Shown: positions 10,771 through 59,825, counted from the whole stretch's first letter. The stretch: DNA of 62,621 bases, filler included, from Anaerolineae bacterium (GCA_029262755.1; 6 parts of 6 records of this genome joined end to end with filler, not necessarily neighbours in it); one strand, 5' to 3'. The notes: a model not told the origin generated them from the sequence alone. Translations and numbers: made by a program.

Positions 10771-10870
10771 NNNNNNNNNNNNNNNNNNNNNNNNNNNNNN
10801 NNNNNNNNNNNNNNTTAATTAATTAANNNNNNNNNNNNNNNNNNNNNNNNNNNNNNNNNNNNNNNNNNNN
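10771..10870. other. Artificial contig linker
   Basis: N run with TTAATTAATTAA. Confidence 0.99.
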
Positions 10871-27272: not shown

Positions 27273-27372
27273 NNNNNNNNNNNNNNNNNNNNNNNNNNNN
27301 NNNNNNNNNNNNNNNNTTAATTAATTAANNNNNNNNNNNNNNNNNNNNNNNNNNNNNNNNNNNNNNNNNNNN
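27273..27372. other. Artificial contig linker
   Basis: N run with TTAATTAATTAA. Confidence 0.99.
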
Positions 27373-29046: not shown

Positions 29047-32000
29047 CTACTCGCTCCCGTGGAGCGCGCCGTCCTTGTCGTCCACGGCGACGTTACCCGC
29101 ACCGTCCGCCGCCTGCACGAGGCAGGCCGCGTCCGCCGCCACGGTCCCGCGCCACACACCGGTCTCCGGCTCCTCGACGAGCGGCTCGCTCGTCCAATAG
29201 CCGCGGCCGTCGTCGCAGGTCGCGCTCACGGCTGGGATGCCGGAGACGTCCGCGACACGCGCCTGGAGCTCGCGGCCCGCCGGTCCATCGATCACGGTCA
29301 CCTCTTCGATGGTCGGTGGTCTCCGGTCCTCGTGGTCGGAGTAGAAGACCTGCACCTCGATCTGGTCATAGAGGCGTTGGATCCGTGTGCCGCCGTGGTA
29401 CTGGCCGAGGTAGAGCAGTAGTGTCGGGTCTCCGGCGTCCTGGTGCTCCATCCGACGCAGGCTCAACAGGCGTTCGGGCAACCAGGCCTCCGGCGCCGCG
29501 TGCGGCTCGTTCTGCACCGTGCGGCGGGCCGTGGGATCCAGGATGCCGGCCCGAGCGACCACCGGCGTGTCCAGCGTCTCCGTAGCGTAGGCGGCTGCTT
29601 TCAACATCACGCCGCGGGCCGGCCAATGCTCACGGCCTGCACTCACCCCCAGGTTCTGGCGCAGCATCGGTTGCACGGCCCGGCCGTTCTCGGCCATCGG
29701 CCGCTGGCCGCGGAAGGCGTAGTGGCTCCCCTCCTGCGAGTCATGCCGCTCGAGCAGGGCGCGCAATTGTTCGCTGACCAGTGTTTGGCGCAGCACGTCG
29801 CCCTTCGGAAATTGCAACATCTGGATGTCGGTCGATGCAGGGAGCAGGTACTCTGGACGTGCATTCCGAGCGGCGACGGGATGCTCGACCGCCCGGTGCG
29901 TGGCCGCCTCCGCGCCGATGCTCCTCGGCGCCGCCCCGCCGTCGCGCCCCAGCGGAATCGCGGCCGCGCTCGTGCCGACCCGCGGCACGGAGGCGATCGG
30001 CAGGTACACCGAATGCTCCCCGCGTTCCAGGCGGTAGCTGGCCATCGGCAGGCCGTAGAGGACCGTGCCGACCAGGGTCTTCACGTGGTACGCGTTCATC
30101 TCGTGGGCCGTGAAGTACTCCTGCTTGGTGCGCATCAGAGCGTCGCCGATGGCAGTGCTCTGGCCCTCCACGAGGGCCGCGGTGAAGTCGACCATGAGCG
30201 CCTCCTGGTAGCCTAGGGCGCCTTGCATGCCGTAGGCCCAGCCGGTGCTGCTGATGTAGTGGGCGCCCGCGCTCTGCCATGCCTCCGGCAGATCCACCGG
30301 TTCGCCCTCCGGCCGCATGTCCGTGCCCGGAACGTTGAGGCCGCCGTGGCACGAGAGGCTGTAGGCGATGGCGCCCGCCATGTCCGGCGGGGCGTCGGCC
30401 AGGGTCTGGGCCCGCAGTGCGCCGGAAGGACCCTCGTAGGCGAAGTGGTTGGCGTGCACGCCCAAGAAGGCCAGGTCGATAGGCTGCCCGCCGAGTTCTT
30501 CTCGTAGGTTGTCGGCGGACCAGGCGTCGCCGAGCAGGCGCCGCACACGGCCAAGGTGGCCGGCCTCCTCCAGCAGCCGCGCGCCTTCCGTTGGACCGTC
30601 CTGCATGAAGTCCCAACCGGCGGCGAGGGATTGGCGGATTGGCTTCGGGCCCTCGCTAGCGAGGAAGGTCTCGATGAGCCGCGCGATGTCATCCGGCCGC
30701 TCGACCAGGCGCCCGATTGCGAGCTGAGGAATGAAGATCTCTTGCTCGTTGCCCCAGTGGTCGGCGACCTCCGCGGCGTAGAAATCGTCGCTGAGCGTGA
30801 GGTTGACTGCCAGTGCCTGGTGGAGCGCGGAGTTGGGGCGGATGGCGCCCGCGGTGCCACCCTTCAAGTAATCCGCTTCCTTCGCCCACTCTGTGTCGCC
30901 CGGCGCAGGCACATGCTGACGAAAGTGCGGGATGACCCGATCGTCGCCGACCAAGACAATGTAGTGTAGTTCGGGCAACGCGGCTCGCTGCGCCGCGATC
31001 CAGTTGCGCAACGCGAGGGCCGCGGCGTTGGCGAGCGCAGGATCGCCCGGCCCCTGGACCCACAGCTGGTAGTCGCCGCCGACCGCATCCTGCAGGTCGG
31101 TGACAAGCCGGCCGCGGACGCGCGGGTCCGCCGCCAGGCTCGACAGGGCCGAAGCCAACCGGTCCGGCGGGTCGAGTGGGCCGGCATAGGATTGGAGCTG
31201 GCTCAGGTTGGTCAGGATGAGGCTGCGCACGCTGTTCGCGTCCACGGCGGTGACGTCCAGGTTTAGGCTGTACTGCCGGTCGCCCGCGACGGCCCGTACC
31301 TTCTGGCGCACCTCGATGTAGAAGGTGCCGGTGTCGGATCCTGTATCGTGCTCGATTCGCTGCTCGCTGAATTCGGGGTCCCAGACTCCGGACGCGATCT
31401 TGCGCCCCGAATCGGAGTCGATGGTCGAGCACGAACGGAAGAGCCGTACCTGCAACGCATTCTCGTCGTCGCTCACGCTGACCAAGATGTGGCTATGCGG
31501 CTCGGCCACCTCGAAGCGGTAGTAGTGGACGTCCTCGACGTGGCGTAGATGTGCCGACAGATTGGTTTCGCTTGGTAGGGCGAGCGCGCGATCACAGCGA
31601 CCGTTGAATTCTCGTACCCGCATGTAGGCACCGCCATGGGTGCCCACGAGCACCTGCCCGTCCGTGCCCGTTGCGATTGCCAACACGTTGTCGTCCGGCA
31701 GGCCGTCCTCGCTGCGCAGGTGACTCCACGCGCCGGCGGCGTCAATCTGGTTCAGGCCGCCACGCAGCCATAGCTCCGTGTCGGGGTCCGGGTCCTCGCG
31801 CCCGCTGACGCCGATCCACGTGGTGTCGTCCTCGTCGAAGGCCAGAGCGCTGATCCGGTCGCCCAGCAATGCCCAATCGGTGGAGGCCTGCGTGATCGGA
31901 TCCAGCCACAGACCGGCCGGCGTACGGCGGCTGATGCCGCCGCCGTCGGTGCCGAACCACATCGTGCCGTCCGGCGCTTCGGCGATGCTGAGCACCCGGT

Positions 32001-34140
32001 CGTTGCTCAGGCCGCCGCCGGTCGAGGCCGAGGTGTAGGCGATCACCTGGTTGTCCTGGTCCACGAAGGCCGCGCCGCCGCCGTAGGTCCCCAGCCACGC
32101 ACCGTCGGCCACGGGGACGATGGCGCGAACGTCGTCGCTGACCAGGCCCTCGGAAGGATCGGCGGCCGCCAGGCGCACGTTGACGGTCTCGCTCATCGCG
32201 CGCCGGGCGCGCAGGGCTTCGCCCGTGGCGCGGTCGACCATGACCGCGGGGATCGTGATGCCGCGGTCGTTGCCCTCCATGCGGATCGGCTCGTGGCCCG
32301 CACCGGCGTAGACGACCACGCCGATAGCGCCGTTGCGCTCCGCGGTCTCCAGGTTGTCCGAGGACCAGCAGTGGCCTTGCTCGACGAGCGCGATCTTGCC
32401 CCGCACGTCTTCTTCGGGTACCTCGACGGTGTGGAAGCAGGCGAAGCCGTGCACCGCGAGCTCGCCCGAGAGCCCCTCCGTGCCGAAGGAAGCCAGCGGC
32501 TTGCCGATCATGCCCTCCAGGCCTGCGTGATCGGTCGCATCGTCGACGCGGACCGTCGCTGCGGGCGCGCGGAGCGAGGGTAGCCAGTTGCCGTCGGCCA
32601 GGATACGGCTGAGGCCCTTCCAGGTGCCGAACCACTTGGTGCCCTCCGCGTCGATGGCAAGGGAGAGCACGAGATTGTCTGCTAGACCGTCCTCGTCGGG
32701 ACGTGCCTGCGTGTAGTGGATCTGGGTGCCGTCGGGCTGAAGCCCGATCACGCCGCCGCCGCGGTAGAACTGAGAAGCAGCGAAGGTCGGATCGTAGAGG
32801 CCGGTCGCCAGCCAGGCGGTGCCCGCGTCGTCGATGGCCATGTCATTGACCCAGTTGGAGAAGCGGCCGGACGTGGCGAAGATTCGGTCCACGTCGCCGG
32901 CGGCCGCCTCGAAGCGCGCGACGCCCTCGCGCGTGCCGAACCAGGCGTGTCGCCGCAGGCCGTCCAGGGCCAGCGCGCTGACGCTATTGCTCGGCAGCTC
33001 CGCGTCCCGGGCCAGTTGGCTCCACCGCCCGTCCGTCCGGCGGTGGCTGATGCCCGCGGCGGTTCCGAAGTAGAGATCGCCTTCCGGTCCGATCTCGATG
33101 GCCGCCACGCGATCGTCCGCCAGGCCCTGGTCGGCGGTTAGGTGCGAAACGGCGCGGCCGACGGCGATGTCGATCCAGCTCGCGCCGCCTTCGCTTGCGA
33201 TCCACAGGAGGCCGTCGTCCGTGACTTGCAGGTCGTGGATGAACTCGGAGAGCAGATCTCCCTTGGGATCCCAGACGTTCCACTGCCCTGCCGGCGTCAT
33301 ACGGCTGAGGCTCCCGTCCAAGTAGGTCTGGATTTCAGAGTCCCAACGCCCGGCCGAGGCTACCCATAGATCGCCGCTGTTCGGATCGACCGCGATCGCG
33401 GGGATGTTGTCCGAGACGAGCGTGTGCCCGTCTGCTTCGAGGGTGTCGGTCTCGTAGGTGCGCCACGCGTCGCCCAGCTCCGTGCTGCGCCAATGTGCCA
33501 GGCCGCCGTTCCACGTACCGATCCATCGTTCCCCGTCGCCCACATGCAGGCTCTGCACGTGGTTGCTCGGCAGCCGGCGTTCGGTGGATTCCTGCGTGTA
33601 GCGCTGCCACACGCCATCGGGCGTGCGCACGTTCAGGCCGCCCCACGTGCCGATCCAGAGAGCGCCGTCGGGGGCCACCTCGAGCACGCGCACGTCTTCG
33701 TGGACCAACTCGGCGCCACGTCGGATGGTCGTCCAATTGCCGCCCGCGTCGAGCCGGGTGAGGCCGGCGGCGGTGCCGAACCACACGTCGTCGCCGGCGA
33801 TGGCGATGGCCCGTACGTCGTTGGAGGCCAGACCGTCGAGCGTGGTGTAGTGCGATGCGGTGTGGCGTACGAGATCCCACAGCACGACCCCGCCGGCGGA
33901 GGCCGTCCACATCTGGTCGGCCTCCGCATCGAGGGCCATGGCGGTGATGCGGTTGGTGTTGGCCAGATAGGTCCACGTCGCTTCCGCTTCGTTGACGGGG
34001 ACTTCTTGCGCTGCGAGCGATGTCGGACGGGGTGCATCCGTCGTGAGCGTGGGGCTAAGTGGTGGCCACACGAGCCCCCAAACGGTCAGCCATAGGGCGG
34101 AGAGGAGGATGCGGAGTGTGCGATGGGATCGGCGTTGCAT
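29047..34140 (-). CDS. Giant secreted protein: two-component-regulator-type beta-propeller repeats, inserted PA domain, peptidase C25 (gingipain, clan CD)-like domain, C-terminal beta domain
   Basis: GGAGG 8 nt before ATG 34140; signal peptide; repeated GLxxNxVxxIxxxxDGxxWxGTxxG; PA-like GKIALVEQGHC...GAIGVVVY...ITIPAVMV; C25-like YIVLVGDDRVIP, LSDDFYA, LAIGRL, VHANH, SLSCHGG, LYGLP. Confidence 0.8.
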   Translation of the reverse strand: MQRRSHRTLRILLSALWLTVWGLVWPPLSPTLTTDAPRPTSLAAQEVPVNEAEATWTYLANTNRITAMALDAEADQMWTASAGGVVLWDLVRHTASHYTTLDGLASNDVRAIAIAGDDVWFGTAAGLTRLDAGGNWTTIRRGAELVHEDVRVLEVAPDGALWIGTWGGLNVRTPDGVWQRYTQESTERRLPSNHVQSLHVGDGERWIGTWNGGLAHWRSTELGDAWRTYETDTLEADGHTLVSDNIPAIAVDPNSGDLWVASAGRWDSEIQTYLDGSLSRMTPAGQWNVWDPKGDLLSEFIHDLQVTDDGLLWIASEGGASWIDIAVGRAVSHLTADQGLADDRVAAIEIGPEGDLYFGTAAGISHRRTDGRWSQLARDAELPSNSVSALALDGLRRHAWFGTREGVARFEAAAGDVDRIFATSGRFSNWVNDMAIDDAGTAWLATGLYDPTFAASQFYRGGGVIGLQPDGTQIHYTQARPDEDGLADNLVLSLAIDAEGTKWFGTWKGLSRILADGNWLPSLRAPAATVRVDDATDHAGLEGMIGKPLASFGTEGLSGELAVHGFACFHTVEVPEEDVRGKIALVEQGHCWSSDNLETAERNGAIGVVVYAGAGHEPIRMEGNDRGITIPAVMVDRATGEALRARRAMSETVNVRLAAADPSEGLVSDDVRAIVPVADGAWLGTYGGGAAFVDQDNQVIAYTSASTGGGLSNDRVLSIAEAPDGTMWFGTDGGGISRRTPAGLWLDPITQASTDWALLGDRISALAFDEDDTTWIGVSGREDPDPDTELWLRGGLNQIDAAGAWSHLRSEDGLPDDNVLAIATGTDGQVLVGTHGGAYMRVREFNGRCDRALALPSETNLSAHLRHVEDVHYYRFEVAEPHSHILVSVSDDENALQVRLFRSCSTIDSDSGRKIASGVWDPEFSEQRIEHDTGSDTGTFYIEVRQKVRAVAGDRQYSLNLDVTAVDANSVRSLILTNLSQLQSYAGPLDPPDRLASALSSLAADPRVRGRLVTDLQDAVGGDYQLWVQGPGDPALANAAALALRNWIAAQRAALPELHYIVLVGDDRVIPHFRQHVPAPGDTEWAKEADYLKGGTAGAIRPNSALHQALAVNLTLSDDFYAAEVADHWGNEQEIFIPQLAIGRLVERPDDIARLIETFLASEGPKPIRQSLAAGWDFMQDGPTEGARLLEEAGHLGRVRRLLGDAWSADNLREELGGQPIDLAFLGVHANHFAYEGPSGALRAQTLADAPPDMAGAIAYSLSCHGGLNVPGTDMRPEGEPVDLPEAWQSAGAHYISSTGWAYGMQGALGYQEALMVDFTAALVEGQSTAIGDALMRTKQEYFTAHEMNAYHVKTLVGTVLYGLPMASYRLERGEHSVYLPIASVPRVGTSAAAIPLGRDGGAAPRSIGAEAATHRAVEHPVAARNARPEYLLPASTDIQMLQFPKGDVLRQTLVSEQLRALLERHDSQEGSHYAFRGQRPMAENGRAVQPMLRQNLGVSAGREHWPARGVMLKAAAYATETLDTPVVARAGILDPTARRTVQNEPHAAPEAWLPERLLSLRRMEHQDAGDPTLLLYLGQYHGGTRIQRLYDQIEVQVFYSDHEDRRPPTIEEVTVIDGPAGRELQARVADVSGIPAVSATCDDGRGYWTSEPLVEEPETGVWRGTVAADAACLVQAADGAGNVAVDDKDGALHGSE

Positions 34141-34207
34141 GGTCATGTCCTCCAAATGATGCAGGTGGGGCGGCGTGCCGGAGCCGCCCGCGTTGAGTGG
34201 GCGGGAA

Positions 34208-37200
34208 TCAGTCCATGGCATCGGCTACGGCGTCGCGCCACGGCCAGGCTGCGCCGCGACGTTGGGCATGCGCATGTGCGGTCTCGCCGAGCGCGTCGCG
34301 GTGCGCGGCGTCGAGCGCGGCGTGTTCGTCCGCGGCTTTGGCCAGCAAGGGCGCGCCGATCTCCTCGCGTAGTCGTTCGGCCGCCGCCAGAAGGCGGCAG
34401 GAGCGACGCGTACGGTCCGTCGCGTGGTCGAGAACGGCGCGCGCCTCGAGCCACTCTGCGATCTTCTGCAGGTCCTCCAGCTCCAGCAGTTCGCGAATAG
34501 CGCGCCGGAAGAAGTCCCGCGCCTGATCGAAGGCGCCCTCGCGTACGGCGAGCTTGGCCAGCGCGCTCTGCGCCGCCGCGATGCCGGCTCGGTCGCCGAG
34601 CGCCTCCACGATCTCCAGGCTCTCCAGGTAGTGGCCGCGCGCGATGTCCAGCTCGCCGGCGTCGAAGGCGGCGTTGCCCTGGTTGAGCAGCACGATGCCG
34701 ACCGCCCAGTGCTCGTCCAGGCGGCGGAAGCGCAGCAGGCTTTCCTCGAGCAGGGTCGTGGCCTCGGCGACGTGACCTTGGTTGAGCTCGAGCAGCCCGA
34801 GGTTGTTCAGCAACGCCGCTTCGCCCCATGCGTCGTCGCGTTCGCGGCAGATCGAAAGGGCGCGGCGGTAGAGCTGCTCGGCTTCGAACGTGCGCCCTTC
34901 TTCGTCCGCCAGGTGGCCCAAGAGGCGCAGCAGGCGCGCTTCGGCCGCCCGGTCATCCTCGCCGCGTGCGAGCGCGAGGCCGGCCTCCAGGCGGCGGCGT
35001 GCGCTCGCGTAGTCGCTCTGCCGGCGCGCCAGGTGGCCGGCGCCCTCCAGCGCGGCGAGCCGTAGCGCAACGTCCTGGTCCTGGCCGGAGTCCGAGGCGC
35101 GATCGGCCTCGTCCAGCAGTCCCTCCAGTAACCGTCGTCCCTCCGTCAGCGCGCCCTTGATCGACCAGTAGTGGCGCAGCGCCGCCGCCAGCGAGAGGGC
35201 CTCCGGCACGCGGTCGTGGCGGCGGAATGCGTCGATGGCGGCAAGCAGGTTCTCGCGTTCGCGGTCCAGGCGCCGCACCCAATCGGATTGCCGCGCATCG
35301 GACAGCGCGTCCCCCGCGCGCCGTGCCAGGTCGCGGTAGTGGCGCGCGTGCCGCAGCTCCAGCTCCGCCTGCGGGCCTTCGCCGTGGGCGCGCGACCGTC
35401 GGCGGCCGTCGCTGCGCAGGGCGTGCAGCATCCGGTAGCGCAGGTCCGGGCCGTCCGGCTCGGGGGGCAGCAAGAGCGATTGTTCAACGAGGCCGGAGAG
35501 CAGATCGAGCATCTCCAAGCGATCGACCACCGGCCGGCCCGGGCCATGGCGTCCCGCGCAGACAGCCTCCGCGGCCTCCAGGGTGAAGCCGCCGGCGAAG
35601 ACCGAGAGGCTCTCGAAGACCGCTTGCTCGCGTTGCGAGAGCAGGCGGTAGCTCCAGTCGATCGACGCGCCGATCGAGCGATGGCGCTCGGGCAGGCCCC
35701 TTGCGCCGCCGCGCACCACCGCCGGCCGGGCGTCGATCAGCTCGGCCAGCGTGGGCAGCGGTATGCTGCCGGCACGCGCCGCGGCGAGCTCGAGGGCGAG
35801 CGGCAGCCCGTCGAGGCGCTCGCAGATGCGCCGCACGGCCTCGCTATCGGCCATGCCGGGACGGAAGCCGGGGCGCCGGGCTTGGAGGCGGTCGATCAGG
35901 AGCTGCTCGGAGTCCGAGACCGGGGCGCCGTGCGTCGCGGAGCGGGGATCCGCCGGCCGACCGAGGGGCTCGACGCGCCAACGCGACTCGCCTGCCACCT
36001 CCAGCGCCACGCGGCTCGTGGCCAGGATCGTCAGGTCGGGGCAGGCGTCCAGCAGGCGGTCCGCTAGATCGGCGGCCGCGTCGAGCAGGTGCTCGCAGTT
36101 GTCGAAGATCAGCAGCGTACGGCGCGGCCGGAGACGGCGCGCGATGCGCTCGGCGAGCGCTTCGCCGGCGCCTTCCGTGATCTCAAGCAGAGCGGCCAGC
36201 GCGGGCGGAACGGACTCCTCGTCCTGGAGTCCCGCGAGCTCCAAGAGCCATACGCCGTCCGGCCAGGTCGCGTGGAGGCGGCGCGCTGCTTCCACCGCCA
36301 GCCGGGTCTTGCCCACGCCGCCCGGGCCCACGAGCGTCACCAGACGCGAGCGCTCCAACATCCGGCCGATCCGCGCCAGGTCGTCGCCGCGACCCACGAA
36401 CAGGTCGCGGCGCGCCGGCAGGTTGCCCTGTGGCTGCGCCGCCGCCTCGGCCGCCGCGTCCGCCGCTGCCTTCGCTTGTCCGTGTGCTTGTACCGGTTCC
36501 CTGCTCGGAGCGGGCTGCGCGGCGTGCTCGGCCTCGCGGCGGCGCAGCTCCATGGCCAGCGCATGCAGCCCGCTCTTCAGGCGACGGCCCAAGGTGCTGC
36601 GCCCGACGGACAGCAGCTCCGGCATCTCCTGCATGCGCACATCGGCTGCGCCGACGAAGCGTGCGTACAGCACGGCCCAGGCCTCGCGCTCACGGTGTCC
36701 GGCCGCGAAATCCGCCCGAAGGAGGCGCAGGGCCTCCTCGCGGCCGGCGCCGCCCGGCGCGGATTTCGCCGACCGCGCGGATGGCGCCGTCGCACCGCGC
36801 AGCGCGAACAAGCGCTCGCGGATCAGATCGTGGAGGAGTTCGGCCAGCGCCTCGCTCCGGTGTTCCGGCGTGGGACCAAGGCCGCGGGCCGTTTGCCGGG
36901 CGCGTACGAGGCCGAGATCGAGAAGGTCCTCGTCCTCCACCGGTGCGCCGCGGCGGATGGAGGCAAGCGCCTGGCGCAAGCGCTGCGGCGTGAGCGCCCC
37001 GATGTGGGCCAGAACGGACACCGTCTGCGCCAGGGTCTCGCCGACCTCGGTGCTGCGCAGGGGGTGGGGCGCGTCCCGTAGATCCGGGCCGGGCGTGGCC
37101 TGCCCGGGCGCCACAAGCTGGTAGATGTGCTCGCTGAAGCGCAGATCACGCAGGCGGTGCTCCCCCAGATCGCGTAGCTGGGCGCCTTCCGGCAACTGCT

Positions 37201-38278
37201 CGCGTACGAGACGCTCGGTGGCGGCAGAGAGCAGGATATGCCCGCCCGCGGCCACGGACTCGATGCGCGCGACCCGGTTGACCGGCGCACCGAAGTAGTC
37301 GCCTTCGCGCACGCGGCACTCGCCTGTATGGACGGCCATGCGGACTTGGACTTGCGGGAAGCCGGCGCCATAGGTGGACCAGTCCTCGTCGGCGAGCGCG
37401 CGCTGCGCGTCGGCGGCGGCCGCGAGAGCGCCGGTGGCCGTACGGAAGGACGCGCGCACCGCGTCGCCCACGGTCTTGAACACGTAGCCGGCGTTTGATC
37501 CGATCGCGGCTTGCAGAAGGGCGTTGAGACGGGCCAAGGCATCGCGCATCCCGGTGGGGTGCGTCTCCCAGAGGGCCGTGCTGCCTTCGATATCGGTGAA
37601 GAGGAAGGTGACGGTGCCCGACGGCGGGCCGATGACCCGAACGGCGTGGGCGGCGCGGGCCCGGGCGGCGTCGTCGAGCATGTCGTCTTCGATCGACTCG
37701 GCCAGCACCACGAGCGCGCGGCCGATGCCATCGGCCAGCTGCGGCAGGGCCACCTCAAAGGGTTGGCCCCGGAAGTCGACGTATTGCAGCCGGCCGAGCT
37801 GGAAGTGCACGTCGGTCGGCTCGTGCAGCACCGGCAGCACGGGCTTGCCGCGATCCAGCGCGTACTGCCACTCGTCCGCCACGTTGGTGGAGGCCATCGA
37901 GGTCGGGGACAGGATGAGCACGAGCACGTCCACGCTATCGAGCGCGTCTTGGATCGCCCGGCTCCAGCGCACGCCGGCGGCGATGCCCTCGCGATCGATC
38001 CACGGCTCGATGCCGAGGCCGGGTAGCGCATCGGCCAACCGGGCCGCGAACGCCGCGTCCGCGTGGCTGTAGCTGATAAACGCGCGGGGCGGCAGCGGCG
38101 ATGTGGTAGCCGCGGAACGCGTGATCGGCGTCGCGCCACGATCCGTGCGGCCACGAGCATCGCGCGCGGAGGCGGCCGAATCCTGGTGCCGGCTCTCAGC
38201 AACGGATCGGTCGTGCGGTCGCGGTCGTTCGGCACTCGTCATACAAATCGCCCCAGTGGGCCATGCGCAGGAACGCAC
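34208..38278 (-). CDS. Multidomain STAND protein: TIR + class III nucleotide cyclase + uncharacterised HTH-containing domain + NB-ARC-type ATPase + TPR
   Basis: TIR AFISYSHAD...WIDREGI...ADEW; cyclase FLFTDIEGST, KTVGDA, RMAVHTG, VNRVAR; Walker A GPGGVGKT; Walker B LIFDNCEH; LDGLPLALELAAAR; TPR with LNNLG. The start may instead be ATG 38242. Confidence 0.92.
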   Translation of the reverse strand: MRSCAWPTGAICMTSAERPRPHDRSVAESRHQDSAASARDARGRTDRGATPITRSAATTSPLPPRAFISYSHADAAFAARLADALPGLGIEPWIDREGIAAGVRWSRAIQDALDSVDVLVLILSPTSMASTNVADEWQYALDRGKPVLPVLHEPTDVHFQLGRLQYVDFRGQPFEVALPQLADGIGRALVVLAESIEDDMLDDAARARAAHAVRVIGPPSGTVTFLFTDIEGSTALWETHPTGMRDALARLNALLQAAIGSNAGYVFKTVGDAVRASFRTATGALAAAADAQRALADEDWSTYGAGFPQVQVRMAVHTGECRVREGDYFGAPVNRVARIESVAAGGHILLSAATERLVREQLPEGAQLRDLGEHRLRDLRFSEHIYQLVAPGQATPGPDLRDAPHPLRSTEVGETLAQTVSVLAHIGALTPQRLRQALASIRRGAPVEDEDLLDLGLVRARQTARGLGPTPEHRSEALAELLHDLIRERLFALRGATAPSARSAKSAPGGAGREEALRLLRADFAAGHREREAWAVLYARFVGAADVRMQEMPELLSVGRSTLGRRLKSGLHALAMELRRREAEHAAQPAPSREPVQAHGQAKAAADAAAEAAAQPQGNLPARRDLFVGRGDDLARIGRMLERSRLVTLVGPGGVGKTRLAVEAARRLHATWPDGVWLLELAGLQDEESVPPALAALLEITEGAGEALAERIARRLRPRRTLLIFDNCEHLLDAAADLADRLLDACPDLTILATSRVALEVAGESRWRVEPLGRPADPRSATHGAPVSDSEQLLIDRLQARRPGFRPGMADSEAVRRICERLDGLPLALELAAARAGSIPLPTLAELIDARPAVVRGGARGLPERHRSIGASIDWSYRLLSQREQAVFESLSVFAGGFTLEAAEAVCAGRHGPGRPVVDRLEMLDLLSGLVEQSLLLPPEPDGPDLRYRMLHALRSDGRRRSRAHGEGPQAELELRHARHYRDLARRAGDALSDARQSDWVRRLDRERENLLAAIDAFRRHDRVPEALSLAAALRHYWSIKGALTEGRRLLEGLLDEADRASDSGQDQDVALRLAALEGAGHLARRQSDYASARRRLEAGLALARGEDDRAAEARLLRLLGHLADEEGRTFEAEQLYRRALSICRERDDAWGEAALLNNLGLLELNQGHVAEATTLLEESLLRFRRLDEHWAVGIVLLNQGNAAFDAGELDIARGHYLESLEIVEALGDRAGIAAAQSALAKLAVREGAFDQARDFFRRAIRELLELEDLQKIAEWLEARAVLDHATDRTRRSCRLLAAAERLREEIGAPLLAKAADEHAALDAAHRDALGETAHAHAQRRGAAWPWRDAVADAMD

Positions 38279-38393
38279 GGCGCCCTCGGCTCCAGCCTAC
38301 TCGGCCGGAAGCGAGGGCGCTGTGTCGTCGGTCACAGTGGGGGTGGGCAGTTCGCCGGGGTGCGGGCTCCCTTTGCCGTCGTTTGGACGGCCC

Positions 38394-39170
38394 CTACTCG
38401 CCACGCACCGTGCGCGGTAGGAAGATCGTGTCCTGCACGCGGAAGACGGGCCTGGTCGCGGTCGGGCTCGGCTCGGGCGGTGCGGCGGTCGGGGTGGGCT
38501 CGCCGGGGACCGGCGTGGTCGTCGCGATCGGGCCGGCCGGCTCGGCGAGCGGGCCCAAGAAGCCGGCGTGGAGGGTGAGGGGTCCGCTACTCATACGTCC
38601 GGTCGCCGGTTGTCCGATCGCCGCGGAGAGCTGGTAGCCCCCGCTCGCCGAACGCTGGCCTGCATGGAAGGTGGCGCGGAGGATTCGCATTCCGGCGCCC
38701 TGTCCGTGGGCCGAGTCCGGCCCGTGCAGAGCCGCCGGTGCCAGCGCGGCCGCAAGCGCGATCGCGATGGCGATCGCAATGACCGCCGTGGCTCGTAGCG
38801 CGGTGCGTGGGGTGCGCGCGGTGCGTGCAGAGCGGGGTGCGACGGGTGGGACGGGTGCGATGGGTGCGACGGGCGGGAAAGGTGCGACGGGTGGGTTGGT
38901 CACAACTGCTGCGGCCGGCGGGAGAGGCACGTTCAACGCGACGGGTGGGATCGACGTGACGGGTGGGATCGACGCGCTTGTTGAACCCGGCGCGACTGGT
39001 GGGATCGGCGCGACCGGCGGGATCGGCGCGACGGGCGAGTTTCGCGCGACTCGCGAGTTCGGCGCGACCGGCTGCTCCGCGTTATCGCGCCGCACGGTCG
39101 GCGTCCTTGGGGGTCCGTGCGGTGTCGCCTGTCGCGCTGTTGTGCGAGGTCGTGTCGTGCGATGCGGCAT
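38394..39170 (-). CDS. Small secreted or anchored protein with PPVAPI repeats, [13 protein letters not shown]...LHAGF domain, PT linker and C-terminal IFLP peptide
   Basis: Hydrophobic segment [16 protein letters not shown]; tail [10 protein letters not shown]...[12 protein letters not shown]. Start codon uncertain (ATG 39170 overlaps the upstream gene; later GTGs are possible). Confidence 0.65.
38836..39072. repeat. Degenerate 18-bp tandem repeats (approx. GCGACGGGTGGGATCGRC) encoding PPVAPI-like hexapeptides
   Basis: Visible units such as gcgacgggtgggatcgac-gtgacgggtgggatcgac and gcgactggtgggatcggc-gcgaccggcgggatcggc. Confidence 0.8.
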
Positions 39171-41022
39171 CGGTTGTCGAATCGTCGGCGGTCGACCCAG
39201 TATGGTACGTCGTACCACCGGTCGCATACGGACCGTAACCGTTGCCGCTGCCGTTGCCGTCGCCGTGCGCGGGCTCCGCGACAGCGTCCGTCTCGAGCCA
39301 GCCCGCCGTCATCGCCTCCGCGTCGCGTTCCGCGTCGCTCGGTGCGAGGCCGATGGCCTCCGCGCCGTAGAGCGCGACGTCGACGTCCTTGAGCGGGGAT
39401 TGTCCGTAGACCTCGGGGTGGAGGTAGAAGCCCTGCTCGATGGTCGACTTCTTTTCTTCGACCGGGATGCGGTAGGTCTGCGCGTAGGGGTCTTGGCGGA
39501 TGCCGGTCACCTGCCAGCTCACACGCTGGCCGGGCACGCCGCCGGCGATACCGAAGCGGCCTCCTTCGACCTCTTGGTCGATGAACAGGCCCGGGGCGGC
39601 GGCGCCCATCGGTGTCAGCTGGTAGCGGTAGTCGCTGTTGAGCGTCTCGAACCAGTTTGCGAGTTCCACCTCGGCGGCGCCCTCATCGTCCAGCGTGACC
39701 ACGCCGTCGTAGATGTTCTTCATGTCCGGGCTCTCGACGAAGCTGTGGTAGAGGTATTGGTTGGCGGGATCGAGCGGATGGTCGATCTTGAAGCTGCCGC
39801 CGCCTTTGGAGATGTTGCCGTCGACACGCAGGTTGTTCTCGACCTTGACCCCGCCTTGGAAGAAGCCGGCGTAGCCCTTCGATTCGCCGTACACCCCGAA
39901 GCCGTTGCCGGCATGGATGCCGGAGACGCCGTGTCCGGAGATGCCCGTCGCGCTGTTCCTGCCATAGACTGCCGCTGAGCCGGACTTGCTGCTGTTGACG
40001 TTGGCGTAGACCGCGTAGTCGCCCGTGCCGCTGGCGTTGACGCCGATCGAGCCGCTTGCGAGCACGCCCGCGCCGGTCGCCGAATCGGCGTAGATCGCGA
40101 TGCCCCGCCCGTTGTGCGAGCCTCGGATCGCGGCGTTGGGCGTGCCGCTCGTGCCGGCGGAGAGGTTGGTCACGCGCAGCAACGTGCCGTTGTATGCGCC
40201 GCCGCCGTCGTGCGGGTATTGGAAAGCGCCTGCGGGACCTGGTTCGCCGGCGGGACCGCGGTCTCCTGGAGGACCTTGTTGGCCGGGCTGGCCGGGGGAG
40301 CCTGCCGATCCGGGAGGGCCGGGCACGCCAGATGGTCCCGGGTCACCCTGGGGTCCGGGTGCACCGTCCGCACCATCGGCACCGTCTGCGCCCGGCTCGC
40401 CCTGCTCACCGGGTTGGCCCGCGGGTCCGGCAGGCCCTTCCGGACCCTCCGGTCCCTGCGGTCCTTCGAGGCCGGCCGTGTCGCCGACCCAGTTGCCGTC
40501 GGCGTCGATCACCAACTCATCGCCGATGCTCAGGCTGCGGGGGGTGATGTCGCCCGTGGCGTTGTCGCTTTCGAGGGCGCGGTGCGCGAGGCGCGCGAAG
40601 GGCGCCGGCGTGATGGATTGGCGTGGAGCCAGGGTTTCGAAGCGGCCTACTCCGGCGGGGCAGCGGGCTTCGATCTCGAGGAAGCGGCCTCCCGCACCGT
40701 CGGTGTCGACGGCCAACGCCTCCGCACCGAAGTCGAGCTCCACCGCGAACACGCCGGCGTCGACGGGCGTGCGCTCGGCGTCGATCGTCGCGCCGATCAT
40801 GGCGCCGTCCTCGGCCGCGTCGAAGAGCGAGAGGCGGAGGTCGCAGGCGCCCTCTGCCGGCTGGTTGCCGACCATGAGCTGGCCTTGGTAGCTGAAGCTG
40901 GATCCGAGGATGCCCTGACCGGCCGGAGCCGCGCGGGCAACGTTGGGCGCCAGCGTGACTAGCAGCAATAGCGCCCATGCGAGGCGGTGAAAACTTCGAT
41001 TCCGAGCACGATTCTGGCGCAT
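39082..41022 (-). CDS. Secreted collagen-like fibre protein with tail-fibre-type C-terminal domain
   Basis: AGGAG before ATG 41022; signal peptide; FSYQGQL N-terminal domain; 28 Gly-X-Y triplets; Gly-rich beta-helix-like region (AVYG, GVSG, GVYG); [13 protein letters not shown]...YQLT C-terminal domain. Confidence 0.85.
40222..40473 (-). repeat. Collagen triple-helix repeat, 28 uninterrupted Gly-X-Y triplets
   Basis: [15 protein letters not shown]...GEP-GPA-GAF counted from the translation. Confidence 0.95.
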
Positions 41023-41385
41023 TGTTTCTCTCCTGGACATCATGGGCGGACGGGTCTTGCCGCACGGACGACGTCGGGTTCGACGGATGCGGCCCTTCGA
41101 TTCCAGGGTACGACAGGGGCATATGTCGGCGCTCGGCGTTCTGGCCTGGTTTTGGCCACATCGCGAACACGACGCGCCACGTCCACGTAGGCGGGCGGCA
41201 CATCGGTGCGTGTCGAAGGCGGTCCAGCCAGCGGGAAGGGCGGGGCAGGGCGATGTCATGGCCGGGGTCGTGCGATCGAACGCGAACCCCACCTTGACCA
41301 TTTCGTCCCGCGTGCTCGACCTCGAATGTTCTCGAATTCGCGCCCGGCCATCCGCGATCTTCGCACTCCACGCTCAGGGCAACGG

Positions 41386-43093
41386 ATGACGCAGCAGACA
41401 GCGCTCACCAGCGTCGCGATCTCTCCGCAGGCCGTACGCGGCGTGCTCTCTGCCATGCGGCATGTGCAGTCCACGACGGGCGCGGCGGGGCGACCGCTCT
41501 TCGACCTGCGGCTGGTCGAGGCGCGCTTGCTGCGGGAAGGCATCGTCGACACACCGGCCAATCGGCGCTGGACGCTGGAGCAGCTACTCACCGAGATCGT
41601 CATGGACCGGCTCGCGGCGCTGCGGGGCGATGACGATCCGCAGCGCCCCGACGTCGGCGACGGTACGCCCGAGGACGAAGCCGAGGGGCTGGCGGAGGAT
41701 CTGCGCTCTGGCTCGAGCGAACGCGAAGCGTGGGGGCTGCTCTACATGCGTTTCCTCGCGCTCACCGAAGTCCCGATGGGCGAGCTTCCCGCCCGCTTCG
41801 GGGTCGGACGCCGTACGATCACGCGCCGCTTGCAGGCCGGTTTGCGTGCGTTGGCCGGCGAGCTGCGAAGCCGTGAGGCCGCCGAACCGAGCGCGAGCGA
41901 GGTGGCCGCCACGTTGTCGCCGATCGAGCGCATTCGGGTCGATCGCGGGTCGGCCGCGGAACGGGGTGCGGTTGCCGGTGACGACGAGGCCGATCGGGGG
42001 ACCGAGGGCGGCGGCCGGAGGAAGCGCGGGACGGTCGGAAGAGGCGGTGGCGAGCGGCCGGCGCTGCGAGAGATGATCGTCTTGGAAACCGACGACCATC
42101 CGGACGTGCCGGATGAGCACGCCGGGGGCATTGACCCCGCGCGTGCGGTCTTGGACGCGCTGCGTGACGGCGGACCGATCGCCCATATTGCCGCGGATAC
42201 CATGCGCGCCCTGGCCCGGCGACCGGTCCAGTCGATCCGCGACTACCGGTTGTCGCGCGTGGCCACATGGTGCGCGCCGGACCACCGGCTGGACCACCGC
42301 TTCGTGCGGCTCGGCCTGATGTTCGACCGGGGTGTCGATCACCCGCAGCGTTGGGCGCCGAGCGAGGAATGCTACGACGGGTTGACCGCACTGCTCGAAA
42401 GCACCGACGAGCCGGCGATCGTACTGCTTGGCCCGCCGGGCTCCGGCAAGAGCAGCCTGCTGCGGCATCACGAGCTGGAGTTGGCGGCCAAGGGACTACG
42501 CGGCGAGAGCGAGCGGCTCAGCCTGCTGCTGCCGCTCAATGCCTATGGGGGCGATCGCGCGGGTGTATCGCGGGAGCAGGTGCCTTCGCCGCTGGCTTGG
42601 ATCGCAAGCTCGTGGCGGCGACGCTACCCGGCGCTGCCCTCCTTCGAGCACATGCTGGCCGATGGACGACTGACGCTTTTGCTCGACGGGCTCAACGAGA
42701 TCCCCCATGCGGGGCCGTCCGACTACGCGCGCTGCGTCGACCTCTGGCGGACGGCTATTGCGGAGATCGCGGCCCTTCCGGGCAATCGCATGGTCTTCAC
42801 GTGTCGCAACCTCGACTACAGCAGCCCGCTCTCCAGCGAGACGCTGCCCGTGCCGCAAGCGCGACTTGAGGCGCTCGGCGACGAGCTGGTTCGCCGCTTC
42901 TTGCACGTCCATCTCCCAGCTCAGGCCGATGCGATCTGGCAGGCGCTCGAGCAGCGCGATTCCGCAATGCGCGAGCTGGTGCGCACGCCCTTTCTGCTAC
43001 GGCTGCTGATCGAGCAGGCCGCCGCGGAAGGCGGTCTACCGGCGGGCGAGGCCGCGCTCTTCGGCGGCTTCGTGCGCCGGGCGCTCCTGCGCG
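41386..43093 (+). CDS. NACHT NTPase with N-terminal HTH-containing domain, 3' truncated by the gap
   Basis: Walker A GPPGSGKS, Walker B LLLDGLNE, VFTCR, LVRTPFLL. The N-terminal ~160 aa align by eye with 36527-36997. Confidence 0.88.
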
Positions 43094-43193
43094 NNNNNNN
43101 NNNNNNNNNNNNNNNNNNNNNNNNNNNNNNNNNNNNNTTAATTAATTAANNNNNNNNNNNNNNNNNNNNNNNNNNNNNNNNNNNNNNNNNNNN
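43094..43193. other. Artificial contig linker
   Basis: N run with TTAATTAATTAA. Confidence 0.99.
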
Positions 43194-44580: not shown

Positions 44581-45031
44581 GCGGCGGATCGCAACCCGCC
44601 GTCGACCGATCTACCCCGCATGTGCCGAGCCGCGCCGTGTTCAACGCCGATTCACGACCGCCTGCACGGCGCGCACCGTGCCCCGCCTCCCAACGTTGCC
44701 TGGTTCGGTCGGCGCGGGTCGCGATCAATCTACGTCGACACCAGTGACCTTGCGGCGTCTGTCGCCCATAAAGCGCTGTGATCGCGTTCGGTGCGCTGCG
44801 TGAGTTCTTAGCGCGGCGGCAGTGTCGGCGGCGGCGTTTGCAGCGTCGGCGTTCGTCGGGATGAATTTGCCGAGTTGCGCTCACCATCCTTTTCTTCGCT
44901 GTCACGAGTTCACCATCACGAGTTGGTGCGCGATTCGTTATTCATGCATGAACGAGCCGCGCCGCGCGACGAGCACGCTCCCCCCGCATCACCCACCCTG
45001 CTCTCCGAATCCCCCCATCGGAGTGTTCCTG

Positions 45032-46915
45032 ATGTCTCGATTTCTCCCGTCGCACACCGAAGCCGATGCGATTTCGCGTTGCGCCCGACGTGCTAGGCCG
45101 CCTAGGGACGAGCATTCGCCCGAGGAAGAGCTATCGCCGCGGGAAGGGCGGTTTCCTCGGTCACTGTGGTCGCCGCGGACGTCGACAGCCCTGGGCGTGG
45201 CGACCTTGCTCACGGCCGTCGCGCTGTGCATCGCCGCATCGGGCGCCGTTCGCCGAACCGTCGCATCGGCCGCCGTCGCTGCGGCCGCCGCCGCGGCCCA
45301 AGGTCCCCCCCGCACGATCTCGTTGCGCGACGGCATGACGCTCGTCCGCGTACCCGGCGGCCCGTTCCTGCGCGGCGACGCGGTCGACGGCCCCGGCGAC
45401 GCCGACGAGCGACCGGCGCGCAGCGTGCACGTCGACCCCTTCTGGCTCGACCTCGCCGAGGTCACGCACGGCATGTTTGCCCGCTTCGTGGCGGACACCG
45501 GCCACGTGACGGTCGCCGAACGCGAGGGCCACGTGTACGGCTTCGTCGACGGCGCCTTCCGCCGCATCGCGGGCCGGACCTGGCGGGACGCGCCCGGCGA
45601 CGCCCCGGCCGCCGAGCGCGACCGGCACCCCGTGACCGCCGTCGGCTGGGCGGACGCCGCCGCGTACTGCGCTTGGGCCGGGCGGCGGCTGCCGACGGAA
45701 GCGGAGTGGGAGCGAGCGGCACGCGGCGCGGATGCGCGCACCTGGCCGTGGGGTAACAGCGCGCCGAACCCCGCGAGCGCCAACATCGCGGACCGCGCGA
45801 GCGGCCTGCCCTGGGCCGATCCCGTCCTGGACGACGGCTACGCGGCTACCGCACCGGTCGGGCGCTATCCGGACGGCGCGGGCCCGTACGGTCACCTGGA
45901 TCTGGCGGGCAACGTGTGGGAATGGGTGGCCGACCGCTACTCGCCCGACTACTACGGCTGGGCGCCGCCGCGCAACCCGCGCGGCCCCGAGAGCGGCACG
46001 CTACGCGCGCAACGCGGCGGCGGCTATAGCGACGACGCCACCCATGTCCGCGGCGCCCGACGCAGCGCGGACGACCTGCGCTACAGCTCGCTCGACGGCG
46101 GCTTCCGCTGCGCAGCCAGCCACGTGGCATCGGCCCTGTGGCTGCCCTTCGTCCAGAAGATTCCGTACTTCGGCCCGACGCCAACCCCGGTCCCTCCTTC
46201 GCCCACCCCACGCCCCACCGCAAGCCCCGCCCCCATCGTCTGCGGCGAGGTGCCGGAATCCGGCTTCGGCAGCCTGTCCATCGAGGGCGATGTCAGCGAC
46301 CCGCCGGCGTCCACCAACCCCGACGTCAACCTGGCCCTACGCGGCTGGGTGACGGTGGACGAGCCCCTGTCGCTGATCGACCTCGGCGGCGAATGGGACG
46401 ACAAGGCGCCCCGCCTGGCCGAGCTGCTCGACCCGCGCGTGCCCGAACCCGTGCGCTTCTCTTCGACCCACCGCGTCTTCGACTACAACGCCGACACCGG
46501 CCGCCGCGGCCCACTGCTCACCCGCTGGCCGGTCACGCTCGCCGGCCTGCCGACCACCCCCGGCCAGCTGCTGCGCGTACCCTCCTCCGGCTACTCGATC
46601 GACGATGCCGGCGGCATGGAGGTGCTCGTCCTCCTCGCCACGGAAGAGCGCATCACGCTCAAGTACACCCGCGAGGACGACGTCGTCTTCGGCTACACGA
46701 TCCACGTCGAGGGCGCCTGCGTCGACCCCCGCCTGGTGGCCGGTTGGCAGCGCCTCGTGGCGAGCGGCCGCCGGGAGCGCCCCGCCCTGCGCGCCGGCCA
46801 AGCCTTCGCCCGCGCCCGCACCGACGAGGTGCTCGTCGCGATCCGCGACACGGGCATGTTCATGGACCCGCGCGTACGGAAGGACTGGTGGCCGGGGATG
46901 AGGTGGGGGGAGTAG
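45032..46915 (+). CDS. FGE-sulfatase (SUMF1/EgtB/PvdO-like) domain protein with internal LWLP peptide, Pro/Thr linker and unknown C-terminal domain
   Basis: RLPTEAEWERAARG, DLAGNVWEW, RGGGY, GFRC; hydrophobic N-terminal segment. Start taken at ATG 45032 (GGAG upstream), uncertain. Confidence 0.85.
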   Translation: MSRFLPSHTEADAISRCARRARPPRDEHSPEEELSPREGRFPRSLWSPRTSTALGVATLLTAVALCIAASGAVRRTVASAAVAAAAAAAQGPPRTISLRDGMTLVRVPGGPFLRGDAVDGPGDADERPARSVHVDPFWLDLAEVTHGMFARFVADTGHVTVAEREGHVYGFVDGAFRRIAGRTWRDAPGDAPAAERDRHPVTAVGWADAAAYCAWAGRRLPTEAEWERAARGADARTWPWGNSAPNPASANIADRASGLPWADPVLDDGYAATAPVGRYPDGAGPYGHLDLAGNVWEWVADRYSPDYYGWAPPRNPRGPESGTLRAQRGGGYSDDATHVRGARRSADDLRYSSLDGGFRCAASHVASALWLPFVQKIPYFGPTPTPVPPSPTPRPTASPAPIVCGEVPESGFGSLSIEGDVSDPPASTNPDVNLALRGWVTVDEPLSLIDLGGEWDDKAPRLAELLDPRVPEPVRFSSTHRVFDYNADTGRRGPLLTRWPVTLAGLPTTPGQLLRVPSSGYSIDDAGGMEVLVLLATEERITLKYTREDDVVFGYTIHVEGACVDPRLVAGWQRLVASGRRERPALRAGQAFARARTDEVLVAIRDTGMFMDPRVRKDWWPGMRWGE

Positions 46916-59725: not shown

Positions 59726-59825
59726 NNNNNNNNNNNNNNNNNNNNNNNNNNNNNNNNNNNNNNNNNNNNTTAATTAATTAANNNNNNNNNNNNNNNNNNN
59801 NNNNNNNNNNNNNNNNNNNNNNNNN
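59726..59825. other. Artificial contig linker
   Basis: N run with TTAATTAATTAA. Confidence 0.99.

Follow-up and report, generated by a model that had tools for sequence, protein, structure and literature searches.

The gene P0001 lies on the minus strand of a 62,621-nucleotide stretch of DNA from an Anaerolineae bacterium (GCA_029262755.1), which we refer to as the window. P0001 encodes a predicted protein of 1,356 amino acids in a single uninterrupted open reading frame (ORF) with no internal stops, and its domains are, in order, a TIR domain, a class III nucleotidyl cyclase, a helix-turn-helix (HTH) domain that we call X, an NB-ARC-type ATPase and a TPR region. An original prediction, made from the sequence, had placed these five modules on one protein, and the reading frame and the domain matches described below agree with it. 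Every part appears to be known or to have a known counterpart; what seems to be rare is that a single switch carries two predicted enzymatic effectors together with a sigma-like HTH. We tentatively read P0001 as an NLR-like STAND switch (NB-ARC plus TPR) with a mosaic N-terminal output region of TIR, cyclase and X, driven by a ligand and immune-type in its role, and we give this reading somewhat less than an even chance. The source genome, G000, is a metagenome-assembled genome (MAG) of 428 contigs and 5.06 Mb that is 84% complete.

Predicted TIR and cyclase enzymes at the N terminus

A TIR domain had been proposed at approximately 37760-38090, with a glutamate at the catalytic position of the motif NVADEW. 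Pfam recognizes TIR_2 in this region (Table 1), and the motif occupies residues 132-137, with Glu136 encoded by the codon at 37871-37873. Glu136 is invariant throughout an alignment of the P0001 TIR domain with seven relatives (alignment A3), and is kept in all 13 TIR-bearing sequences that were compared. The A3 profile reaches solved TIR domains in the PDB, including those of TIR-STING, PdTIR, SPARTA TIR-APAZ, AbTIR, Cat1 and SARM1, and several of the matched records carry the name NAD(+) hydrolase. In these profile-to-PDB alignments, Glu136 is aligned with the glutamates of the "KFEM" motif of TIR-STING and the "LKEL" motif of SPARTA TIR-APAZ, which are the catalytic residues of those proteins. 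The P0001 TIR domain is, as judged from these alignments, probably of the NAD-cleaving type.

The cyclase had been predicted at approximately 37115-37620, with two metal-binding aspartates and an NxxxR motif. The Pfam Guanylate_cyc match covers residues 220-377 (nucleotides 37148-37621; E 8.2e-16, 58.6 bits against a cut-off of 21.9), and the expected motifs are located in FTDIEGST (227-234), FKTVGDA (267-273) and GDYFGAPVNRVARIES (326-341). In class III enzymes, the positions of D229 and D272 bind metal, those of N334 and R338 stabilize the transition state, and those of K268 and D327 select ATP; all six of these catalytic and specificity residues are present in P0001. Among sequences with solved structures, the closest are those of the trypanosomal GRESAG4 adenylate cyclases (1fx2, E 3.4e-22), whose FTDIESST, KTVGDS and DYYGRTPNMAAR align with FTDIEGST, KTVGDA and DYFGAPVNRVAR in P0001. 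The predicted cyclase thus carries the Lys/Asp pair that characterizes adenylate cyclases. A concern voiced with the original prediction was that the domains might be inactive, and the catalytic residues of P0001 give no indication of this.

An AlphaFold2 model of residues 55-400 folds the TIR domain and the cyclase each with confidence (mean pLDDT 83), and pLDDT in the TIR region is mostly 81-96, with two short dips to ~60. In this model, the cyclase can be superposed on Ma1120, Rv1900c and CyaC with TM scores of up to 0.94 (Foldseek E ~1e-15).

Of the 13 TIR-cyclase sequences compared, 11 keep the complete set of cyclase residues. Residues of this set are lost in P0130, a paralogue within G000 whose cyclase is degenerate (FTEIDGAS, FRSIGD, GAYVG), and in P0132, which lacks the Lys, the specificity Asp and the Arg, and the TIR glutamate is kept in both. 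In the case of P0132, this pattern hints that the cyclase acts as a scaffold in some fusions.

A sigma region 4-like domain, X

An "HTH domain" had been predicted between the cyclase and the ATPase. Profile and structure comparisons support the presence of an HTH, and its type can be refined to one that resembles region 4 of sigma-70 factors. Pfam gave no usable match on residues ~395-625 of P0001 (the best was TFIIA_gamma_N, E 0.66), and single members of the X family gave only scattered weak matches across many HTH families. In an alignment of 31 X sequences (A2), a block at the C-terminal end is conserved and includes W, RR and L positions that hardly vary; the Arg-Arg pair falls in the second helix of the HTH, the recognition helix. 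When A2 was compared using hhalign with region 4 of G000's own extracytoplasmic function (ECF) sigma factors, the two aligned over 49 columns with a probability of 90% (E 1.5e-6), and two controls, a column-reversed A2 and the TIR alignment, gave 0.3% each. With full-length ECF sigma factors, the region 4 part was aligned (77%) and region 2 was not. The best match of the X profile among PDB sequences is a sigma factor fragment (3hug, E 0.088).

The AlphaFold2 model of X is confident (pLDDT 90.5, pTM 0.82) and has ten helices. A Foldseek search of the PDB with this model gave no match at E <= 0.001, and the weak top rows were ECF sigma factors. The top rows of VIA-align, which is index-free, are sigma region 4 structures (3mzy, Z 5.8; 6dv9, 5.7; 4xln, 5.6; 5fgm, 5.0), and complexes with -35 DNA are also ranked (2h27, Z 4.5; 6jhe, 3.9), with all rows spanning model residues ~65-186; these Z values are under the tool's stand-alone trust level, and their weight comes from agreement with the hhalign profile result. 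In the ESM Atlas, X leads to unnamed Chloroflexota clusters and to one lead (score 0.86) in which 13% of members carry Sigma70_r4. Profiles and model together support the assignment of X as a sigma4-like HTH domain. We also considered whether X could be a sigma factor, which seems less likely: no sigma region 2 could be aligned, and PF08281 did not match P0001 in a whole-genome scan, so X is better described as a sigma4-like HTH domain than as a sigma factor.

A profile made from five copies of X matches in 19 of 61 related genomes. X is present in all 16 genomes of the same bacterial family, with up to 14 copies each, and outside this family it was found in one of ten sister-family genomes and in one further genome (two of the 44 other relatives searched). 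Three further genes of G000 carry the X segment, one of them the truncated gene that shares the contig with P0001 (41206-43093). The match begins at most 94 residues from the upstream stop in 30 of 31 other loci, indicating that X is normally an N-terminal domain. Most carriers are proteins of 950-1,270 amino acids, and the single exception is a protein of 2,032 amino acids (L083), in which an N-terminal region without assignment is followed by X, NACHT and FGE. X is also found in short open frames of 175-275 amino acids and in proteins of ~520-580 amino acids. The HTH of X thus seems to belong to a family-restricted N-terminal module of STAND proteins. When longer proteins were searched with the X profile by way of a word index, three matches were obtained (P0382, which is X-NACHT-FGE, P0001 and P0004); this search was swamped, so it says little about the distribution of X.

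The stack could be real without all of its modules being outputs. The cyclase or the TIR domain might mainly provide a dimerization or assembly platform for the other, as the two TIR-cyclase proteins without cyclase catalytic residues (P0130 and P0132) would suggest, or X might be an adaptor instead of a DNA binder. The short X frames and the ~520-580 amino acid proteins are in keeping with an adaptor, as is the fact that a known counterpart was found for the sigma4-like half of X only, with no sigma2 match. However, P0001 retains every catalytic residue of both enzymes, which argues against a platform, and the near-invariant Arg-Arg pair in the recognition helix argues against an adaptor. We regard this explanation as improbable.

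The ATPase switch and the presumed sensor

The ATPase is matched by AAA_22 at residues 644-738 (28.6 bits against a cut-off of 27), and by Pfam NB-ARC at residues 644-727 with 20.6 bits, under the cut-off of 23.5. A GLPLAL motif marks the NB-ARC family, and the assignment of P0001 to this family is strengthened by the motifs Walker A (GPGGVGKT, 651-658), Walker B (LLIFDNCEH, 722-730) and GLPLALE (824-830) in its sequence. The NCBIfam model FxSxx_TPR matches N-terminally at residues 620-892. TPR_12 matches three stretches between residues ~1080 and 1290 (64.4 bits against a cut-off of 30.1), and a search of PDB sequences with the NB-ARC-TPR half returned TPR proteins only. On another contig in the window (6090-9521, minus strand), a protein of 1,143 amino acids with AAA_16 and TPR_MalT/TPR_12 is 32% identical to this half of P0001; its N-terminal 300 amino acids have no annotation.

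Table 1. Features of P0001, its contig and the window. Coordinates are those of the window; residues (aa) are those of the encoded protein.
Feature	Coordinates	Strand	Details
Whole gene P0001	34208..38278	-	TIR - class III cyclase - X (sigma4-like HTH) - NB-ARC - TPR (predicted)
TIR_2 domain	37739..38080	-	aa 67-180; Pfam E 7.6e-27, 94.7 bits against a cut-off of 28
Class III nucleotidyl cyclase domain	37094..37636	-	aa 215-395; D229, K268, D272, D327, N334, R338
Domain X	36509..37006	-	aa ~425-590; all-helical
Sigma-70 region-4-like HTH in C-terminal part of X	36527-36676	-	aa ~535-584
NB-ARC-type STAND ATPase module	35279..36403	-	aa 626-1000; P-loop module aa 627-745
TPR repeat region, presumed sensor	34211..35278	-	aa 1001-1356
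P0002, downstream secreted protein	29047..34221	-	1,724 aa; signal peptide, Reg_prop beta-propeller repeats, PA domain
Proline-rich protein	38394-39227	-	one membrane-spanning stretch; between the collagen-like gene and P0001
Collagen-triple-helix-repeat protein	39082-41301	-	signal peptide; upstream of P0001, same strand
Second STAND gene, X-NACHT	41206..43093	+	same contig, ~3 kb from P0001; cut by contig end
Five pairs of 44-N runs	2583-2682, 10771-10870, 27273-27372, 43094-43193, 59726-59825		12 bases between the runs of a pair

Relatives and rarity of the architecture

Proteins that combine a cyclase, an ATPase and TPRs are numerous: of 8,000 candidates that were scored, 4,886 reached E <= 0.001, and among the 120 best of these relatives TIR_2 is found in P0001 alone. 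With residues 60-400 as the query, TIR_2 and Guanylate_cyc occur together in 10 of the 120 best matches, P0001 included. Eight of these ten, with 57-64% identity in this search, are TIR-cyclase-NACHT(-FGE-sulfatase) proteins (P0123-P0130), in which the TIR-cyclase cassette and its linker are 57-66% identical to P0001. P0132 (1,169 amino acids, 43% identity), encoded on an Armatimonadota MAG contig (L059, JAUWAU010000001.1), is TIR-cyclase-NB-ARC-TPR without X. The closest full-length relative is P0004, a protein of 1,106 amino acids from a Logan assembly that is 60% identical over 1,134 aligned positions. Its order is cyclase-X-NB-ARC-TPR; there is no TIR domain, and the protein starts with the first cyclase strand.

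An exhaustive search of representatives at 50% identity matched 77,512 proteins, of which 150 were listed. Thirty of these were scanned with Pfam, chosen because they had at least two matched stretches, were matched across both domains in one stretch, or were matched in the TIR part only. Both domains are present in two of the 30, namely P0237 (a fragment of 340 amino acids) and P0271 (864 amino acids, TIR-cyclase-nSTAND1-like), and P0238 has a partial TIR domain detected by our own profile only. In 60 genomes of relatives, matches spanning TIR and cyclase were found in G000 only (five, among 150 of 217 matches listed), and when 401 genomes from across the phylum were sampled, the P0001 TIR subfamily (E <= 1e-25) was likewise found in G000 only, where it has eight copies. 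TIR relatives at 50-59% identity are shorter proteins (open frames of ~240-510 amino acids) from six Anaerolineae MAGs.

Among the matches listed, the full TIR-cyclase-X-NB-ARC-TPR stack was seen once, and such architecture counts are lower bounds. The order of modules is constant in all architectures seen (TIR, cyclase, X, nucleotide-binding oligomerization domain). These searches suggest that the TIR-cyclase pair is rare, that the same holds for a TIR-cyclase cassette common to two chassis, and that the five-domain stack is known from P0001 only. The possibility, raised with the original prediction, that the architecture might be common and characterized is thus true of cyclase-NB-ARC-TPR proteins, which are very common, but not of the full stack. 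We found no publication that names a TIR-cyclase fusion, in a search that did not extend to the supplementary architectures of preprint 10.64898/2026.08.12.744502, which may list a TIR-cyclase-STAND form.

The best named ESM Atlas cluster for TIR-cyclase has 317 members from Bacteroidota (score 0.91, with only 144 shared features), and contains Guanylate_cyc in 93% of members and DUF4062, which we take to be a TIR-like domain, in 29%. Fusions of TIR-like and cyclase domains may therefore exist in this other phylum as well. A quick maximum-likelihood tree built from 74 cyclase domains pairs the P0001 cyclase with that of P0004, with weak support (SH-aLRT 81), and places it among the NACHT-FGE-linked cyclases. 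The P0001 cyclase lies outside a clade of 37 rows (SH-aLRT 98) that contains ordinary cyclase-NB-ARC proteins and P0132. The tree hints at independent origins of the TIR-cyclase-NB-ARC layout, but by an approximately unbiased (AU) test one clade uniting all 17 TIR-bearing rows is not rejected (p-AU 0.177), and we therefore make no claim of independent origins.

Continuity of the gene

A stop or a misassembly between the cyclase and NB-ARC parts had been named as a possible flaw in the prediction, and no such stop was found. An assembly chimera could have arisen if a TIR-cyclase-NACHT-type gene was misjoined to a P0004-like cyclase-X-NB-ARC-TPR gene within the conserved cyclase core. The five-domain combination was seen only once, as would be expected of an artefact, and the exact-match Logan contigs of sequencing run X1 end at 37225 and restart at 37306, inside the cyclase, with no bridge among the pieces listed, which were all but 84. 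Identity to P0004 is 56% in the N-terminal half of the cyclase and 73% in the C-terminal half; these are small samples, and the difference is within sampling noise and fits an old natural recombination point equally well.

Several observations disfavour a chimera. The longest exact match of P0001 to any other G000 contig is 27 nucleotides and its DNA identity to paralogues is 67-75%, so a false join cannot be put down to G000's own paralogues. Neither the reading frame nor the cyclase fold is interrupted, and the two junctions recur elsewhere: TIR-cyclase in 12 other sequences, and cyclase-X in P0004. The run X1 contigs cover 34000-37225 and 37306-38500 at similar depths (5.5-8.9), although X1 may be the source sample and hence does not provide independent support. 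Run X3, which belongs to a second study, contains pieces that are 92-95% identical to both the TIR part and the NB-ARC part, where runs X2 and X3 are small-share matches consisting of fragments only. Misassembly of P0001 is unlikely, and we consider a chimera of this type very improbable.

The STAND repertoire of the genome and the neighbouring genes

A census with our own profiles found 28 ORFs in G000 with a related NACHT or NB-ARC module. Four are TIR-cyclase-NACHT-FGE and three are cyclase-NACHT-FGE, with one further partial copy of the latter; two are X-NACHT, both truncated by contig ends; one is X-NB-ARC; two are TIR-NB-ARC(-TPR) (C8 and C315); three are NACHT-FGE fragments; eleven are NB-ARC(-TPR) with other N termini; and one has the P0001 architecture. 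On each of four contigs there are at least two of these genes. The census suggests that P0001 is part of a lineage-specific, heavily shuffled repertoire of ~28 STAND genes. The four TIR-cyclase-NACHT-FGE-sulfatase paralogues (C218, C277, C30 and C223; L002-L005) encode proteins of 1,144-1,331 amino acids, and three of them are among the eight relatives P0123-P0130 described above; the C223 copy is P0130, with the degenerate cyclase. A diversity-generating retroelement that acts on the FGE sensors was also considered. There is no RVT_1 in G000, and hence no sign of such an element.

The window is a chain of G000 contigs, with joins marked by pairs of 44-N runs. These pairs coincide with MAG contig ends, so genes that flank a pair are not shown to be genomic neighbours, and the true genomic context of P0001 is limited to contig C255 (27373-43093, 15,721 bp). 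The X-NACHT gene at the end of this contig has an X that is 37-38% identical to that of P0001, and its NACHT shares 47% identity with the NACHT of the TIR-cyclase-NACHT-FGE paralogues. Complete X-NACHT-FGE proteins were found elsewhere (P0382, 1,097 amino acids; L083, 2,032 amino acids). On a different contig in the window, C256 (43194-59725), adjacent Polbeta/NTP_transf_2 and NTase_sub_bind genes (47206-48041, plus strand) have a layout like that of a nucleotidyltransferase/HEPN-type toxin-antitoxin pair, and the same contig encodes an FGE-sulfatase protein (44822-46915) and an HNH_2 protein (55041-56012).

The stop codon of P0001 is at 34208-34210, and the candidate starts are a GTG at 38278 and an ATG at 38242; with either, a low-complexity leader of 50-62 amino acids precedes the TIR domain. 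GC content at third codon positions (GC3) is 0.86, which is typical for coding sequence in DNA of 65-72% GC. A 22-nucleotide inverted repeat (38276-38324; 82% complementary, with a 5-nucleotide loop) overlaps the GTG candidate and is just upstream of the ATG candidate, and could be a leader hairpin, an operator or a chance occurrence in GC-rich DNA. No site was found in a promoter and terminator scan of 33900-38700. The longest ORF of P0002 overlaps the P0001 stop by 14 nucleotides, and ~800 amino acids at the C terminus of its product have no annotation. The two genes share a strand and no terminator-like site separates them, so they are possibly co-transcribed.

No cNMP_binding domain was found in P0001, or in the contig ORFs scanned at E <= 1e-5. 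G000 has 13 cNMP_binding matches, and these predicted proteins could be readers of cyclic AMP (cAMP).

Comparison with known systems

The comparison that the original prediction drew with cyclase-NB-ARC and TIR-STAND proteins is apt. Rv0386, Rv1358 and Rv2488c of Mycobacterium tuberculosis form a trio of the cyclase-NB-ARC-TPR type. Like other cyclase-NB-ARC/AAA-TPR proteins ("predicted ATPase/class 3 adenylate cyclase"), P0001 has a cyclase, an NB-ARC-type ATPase, TPRs and an HTH in one chain. Unlike these, it has an extra N-terminal TIR domain, and its HTH is sigma4-like and located between the cyclase and the ATPase. P0001 also lacks the C-terminal GerE/LuxR HTH of Rv0386-type proteins (no match at E <= 0.1), and on this basis we rejected its membership in the Rv0386-type LuxR group.

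With the TIR-cyclase-NACHT-FGE-sulfatase proteins P0001 shares the same TIR-cyclase cassette, including the linker, whereas its switch is NB-ARC instead of NACHT, its sensor is TPR instead of FGE-sulfatase/C-lectin-type, and X is present in P0001 only. With P0004 it shares cyclase-X-NB-ARC-TPR, and at the protein level the TIR domain is in P0001 only. TIR-STAND receptors, such as plant TNLs, bacterial Avs/NLR-like proteins and the C8 and C315 proteins of G000, resemble P0001 in having an N-terminal TIR domain with a glutamate at the catalytic position, a STAND ATPase and a repeat sensor, but P0001 has two further modules between the TIR domain and the ATPase. Activation by induced oligomerization is the established model for such receptors. 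There are no Avs models among the PADLOC matches to P0001 at E <= 0.1, so the likeness to Avs is one of layout only, and membership in a defined Avs family was rejected.

Nucleotide cyclases and TIR NADases are paired for defence in Pycsar/Pucsar, according to bioRxiv 10.64898/2026.08.12.744502. In those systems the cyclase product activates a separate protein with a cyclic nucleotide-binding domain (CNBD) and a TIR domain, whereas P0001 has both enzymes in one chain and no cNMP-binding domain. PycC models match P0001 at E 0.023 and 0.048, and Pycsar/Pucsar membership was rejected on the basis of these weak scores and the absence of a cNMP_binding effector on the contig ORFs scanned. Membership in Thoeris was rejected as well: the ThsB_TIR model scores 18.7 bits (cut-off 21.2), the ThcB4 model scores 33 bits (cut-off 220), and no SIR2_2 ThsA-type partner was found in the 84%-complete G000.

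The use of a sigma-type HTH as a STAND output has a parallel in the ECF-like HTH effectors of TRADD-N/STAND conflict proteins, and PMC8195603 notes the ECF-like HTH as a non-enzymatic effector domain. X may differ in being a family-centred domain without a Pfam match. In multicellular bacteria, cNMP cyclases and TIR domains are alternative N-terminal signal generators of conflict systems (PMC7159879), and one clade of cyclases fused to NACHT and AP-ATPase has been termed "immune clade 1", a putative assignment, in bioRxiv 10.64898/2026.08.12.744502. PMC13581612 and PMC10907252 report FGE-type sensors in defence-associated STANDs.

Proposed mechanism and role

Class III cyclases are obligate dimers with active sites at the dimer interface, and TIR NADases need TIR-TIR self-association. 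From these properties and from what is known of STAND/NLR proteins, the most likely mechanism of P0001 would be as follows. Binding of a ligand by the TPR region would release autoinhibition, after which the NB-ARC module would swap its nucleotide and oligomerize. Oligomerization would cluster the N-terminal domains, and because the TIR domain and the cyclase both need self-association, the resulting cyclase dimers and TIR assemblies would both become active. The clustered HTH domains would become multivalent and might thereby gain avidity for DNA. Potential outputs are NAD+ consumption or an ADP-ribose (ADPR)-derived signal, cAMP, and a transcriptional effect.

An immune-type role is the leading, but unproven, reading of P0001, with a regulatory role as the alternative. 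The conserved TIR glutamate and the cassette shared with NACHT-FGE proteins are in its favour. Comparative work also connects surveillance of a conflict or immune type with the NACHT-FGE and cyclase-STAND proteins found in such repertoires (PMC7159879, PMC10907252, PMC13581612, preprint 10.64898/2026.08.12.744502).

A number of observations weigh against this reading. PADLOC gave domain-level TIR and TPR matches only, and no Avs or other system model. No recognized defence gene is beside P0001, whose neighbours encode CorA, a large secreted protein and a collagen-like protein, and SIR2_2, the ThsA-type NADase domain, was not found in the 84%-complete G000. Between P0001 and P0004 all domains are evenly conserved, with the TPR region as conserved (62-70%) as other parts, and hence nothing in this pair points to a diversifying sensor. 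Judging by their presence in 16 of 16 family genomes in up to 14 copies, X-STAND proteins resemble an expanded family of transcription regulators. The mutual orientation of TIR and cyclase is undefined in the AlphaFold2 model, owing to a disordered linker (pLDDT < 50; pTM 0.56), and continuity over nucleotides 37226-37305 rests on the MAG contig alone.

AfsR and MalT are DNA-binding STAND regulators, and P0001 might be a physiological STAND transcription factor akin to these or to Rv0386-type proteins. Its HTH would then regulate nearby genes, such as P0002, its cyclase would emit cAMP to cNMP receptors, and its TIR domain would play an accessory part, in enzymatic activity or in assembly. A regulator would fit with the DNA-binding type of the HTH in X, with the position of X as the only N-terminal domain in most of its carriers and with the expanded family just mentioned, and the 13 cNMP_binding matches in G000 could supply the receptors. 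The very large, generic cyclase-NB-ARC-TPR family, the even conservation relative to P0004 and the arrangement of P0002 on the same strand with no intervening terminator-like site also agree with this explanation. However, a regulator does not readily account for a TIR glutamate kept in 13 of 13 sequences, or for a profile that reaches solved TIR domains of known NADases. Moreover, the same cassette is carried by NACHT-FGE proteins, which are placed in conflict systems by PMC7159879, PMC10907252 and PMC13581612, and we found no recurrent linkage of P0002 homologues with STAND paralogues. We consider a regulator rather unlikely, though a serious contender.

Implications

Bacterial NLR-like proteins are usually described as having one sensor and one effector. 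P0001 differs in that two predicted enzymatic effectors of different chemistry and a putative DNA-binding domain are on one switch, with catalytic residues intact. We speculate that TIR and cyclase form a functional two-enzyme cassette grafted by bacteria onto different NLR-like chassis, such that in P0001 one sensing event would fire NAD+ cleavage or an ADPR-derived signal together with cAMP and would engage the sigma-like DNA-binding domain. This idea is doubtful, and we think it more probably wrong than right. TIR and cyclase occur together on four chassis: NACHT-FGE, X-NB-ARC-TPR, plain NB-ARC-TPR (the Armatimonadota MAG) and nSTAND1-like. If the idea is correct, P0001 would be a multi-output resistosome that couples metabolic shutdown, second-messenger signalling and transcription, and the obligate cyclase dimer may nucleate TIR assembly.

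G000 itself provides natural controls for comparison, namely another chassis that carries the cassette, the chassis of P0001 where it lacks the cassette, and a paralogue whose cyclase is degenerate. Such a set bears on the way in which different N-terminal effectors are activated by induced oligomerization, and on the help that a cyclase dimer may give to TIR assembly. It also bears on the place of cyclase-STAND proteins, which number in the thousands, in immunity as opposed to ordinary signalling. In addition, the analysis defines X as a new, family-restricted N-terminal domain of STAND proteins that is predicted to be sigma4-like.

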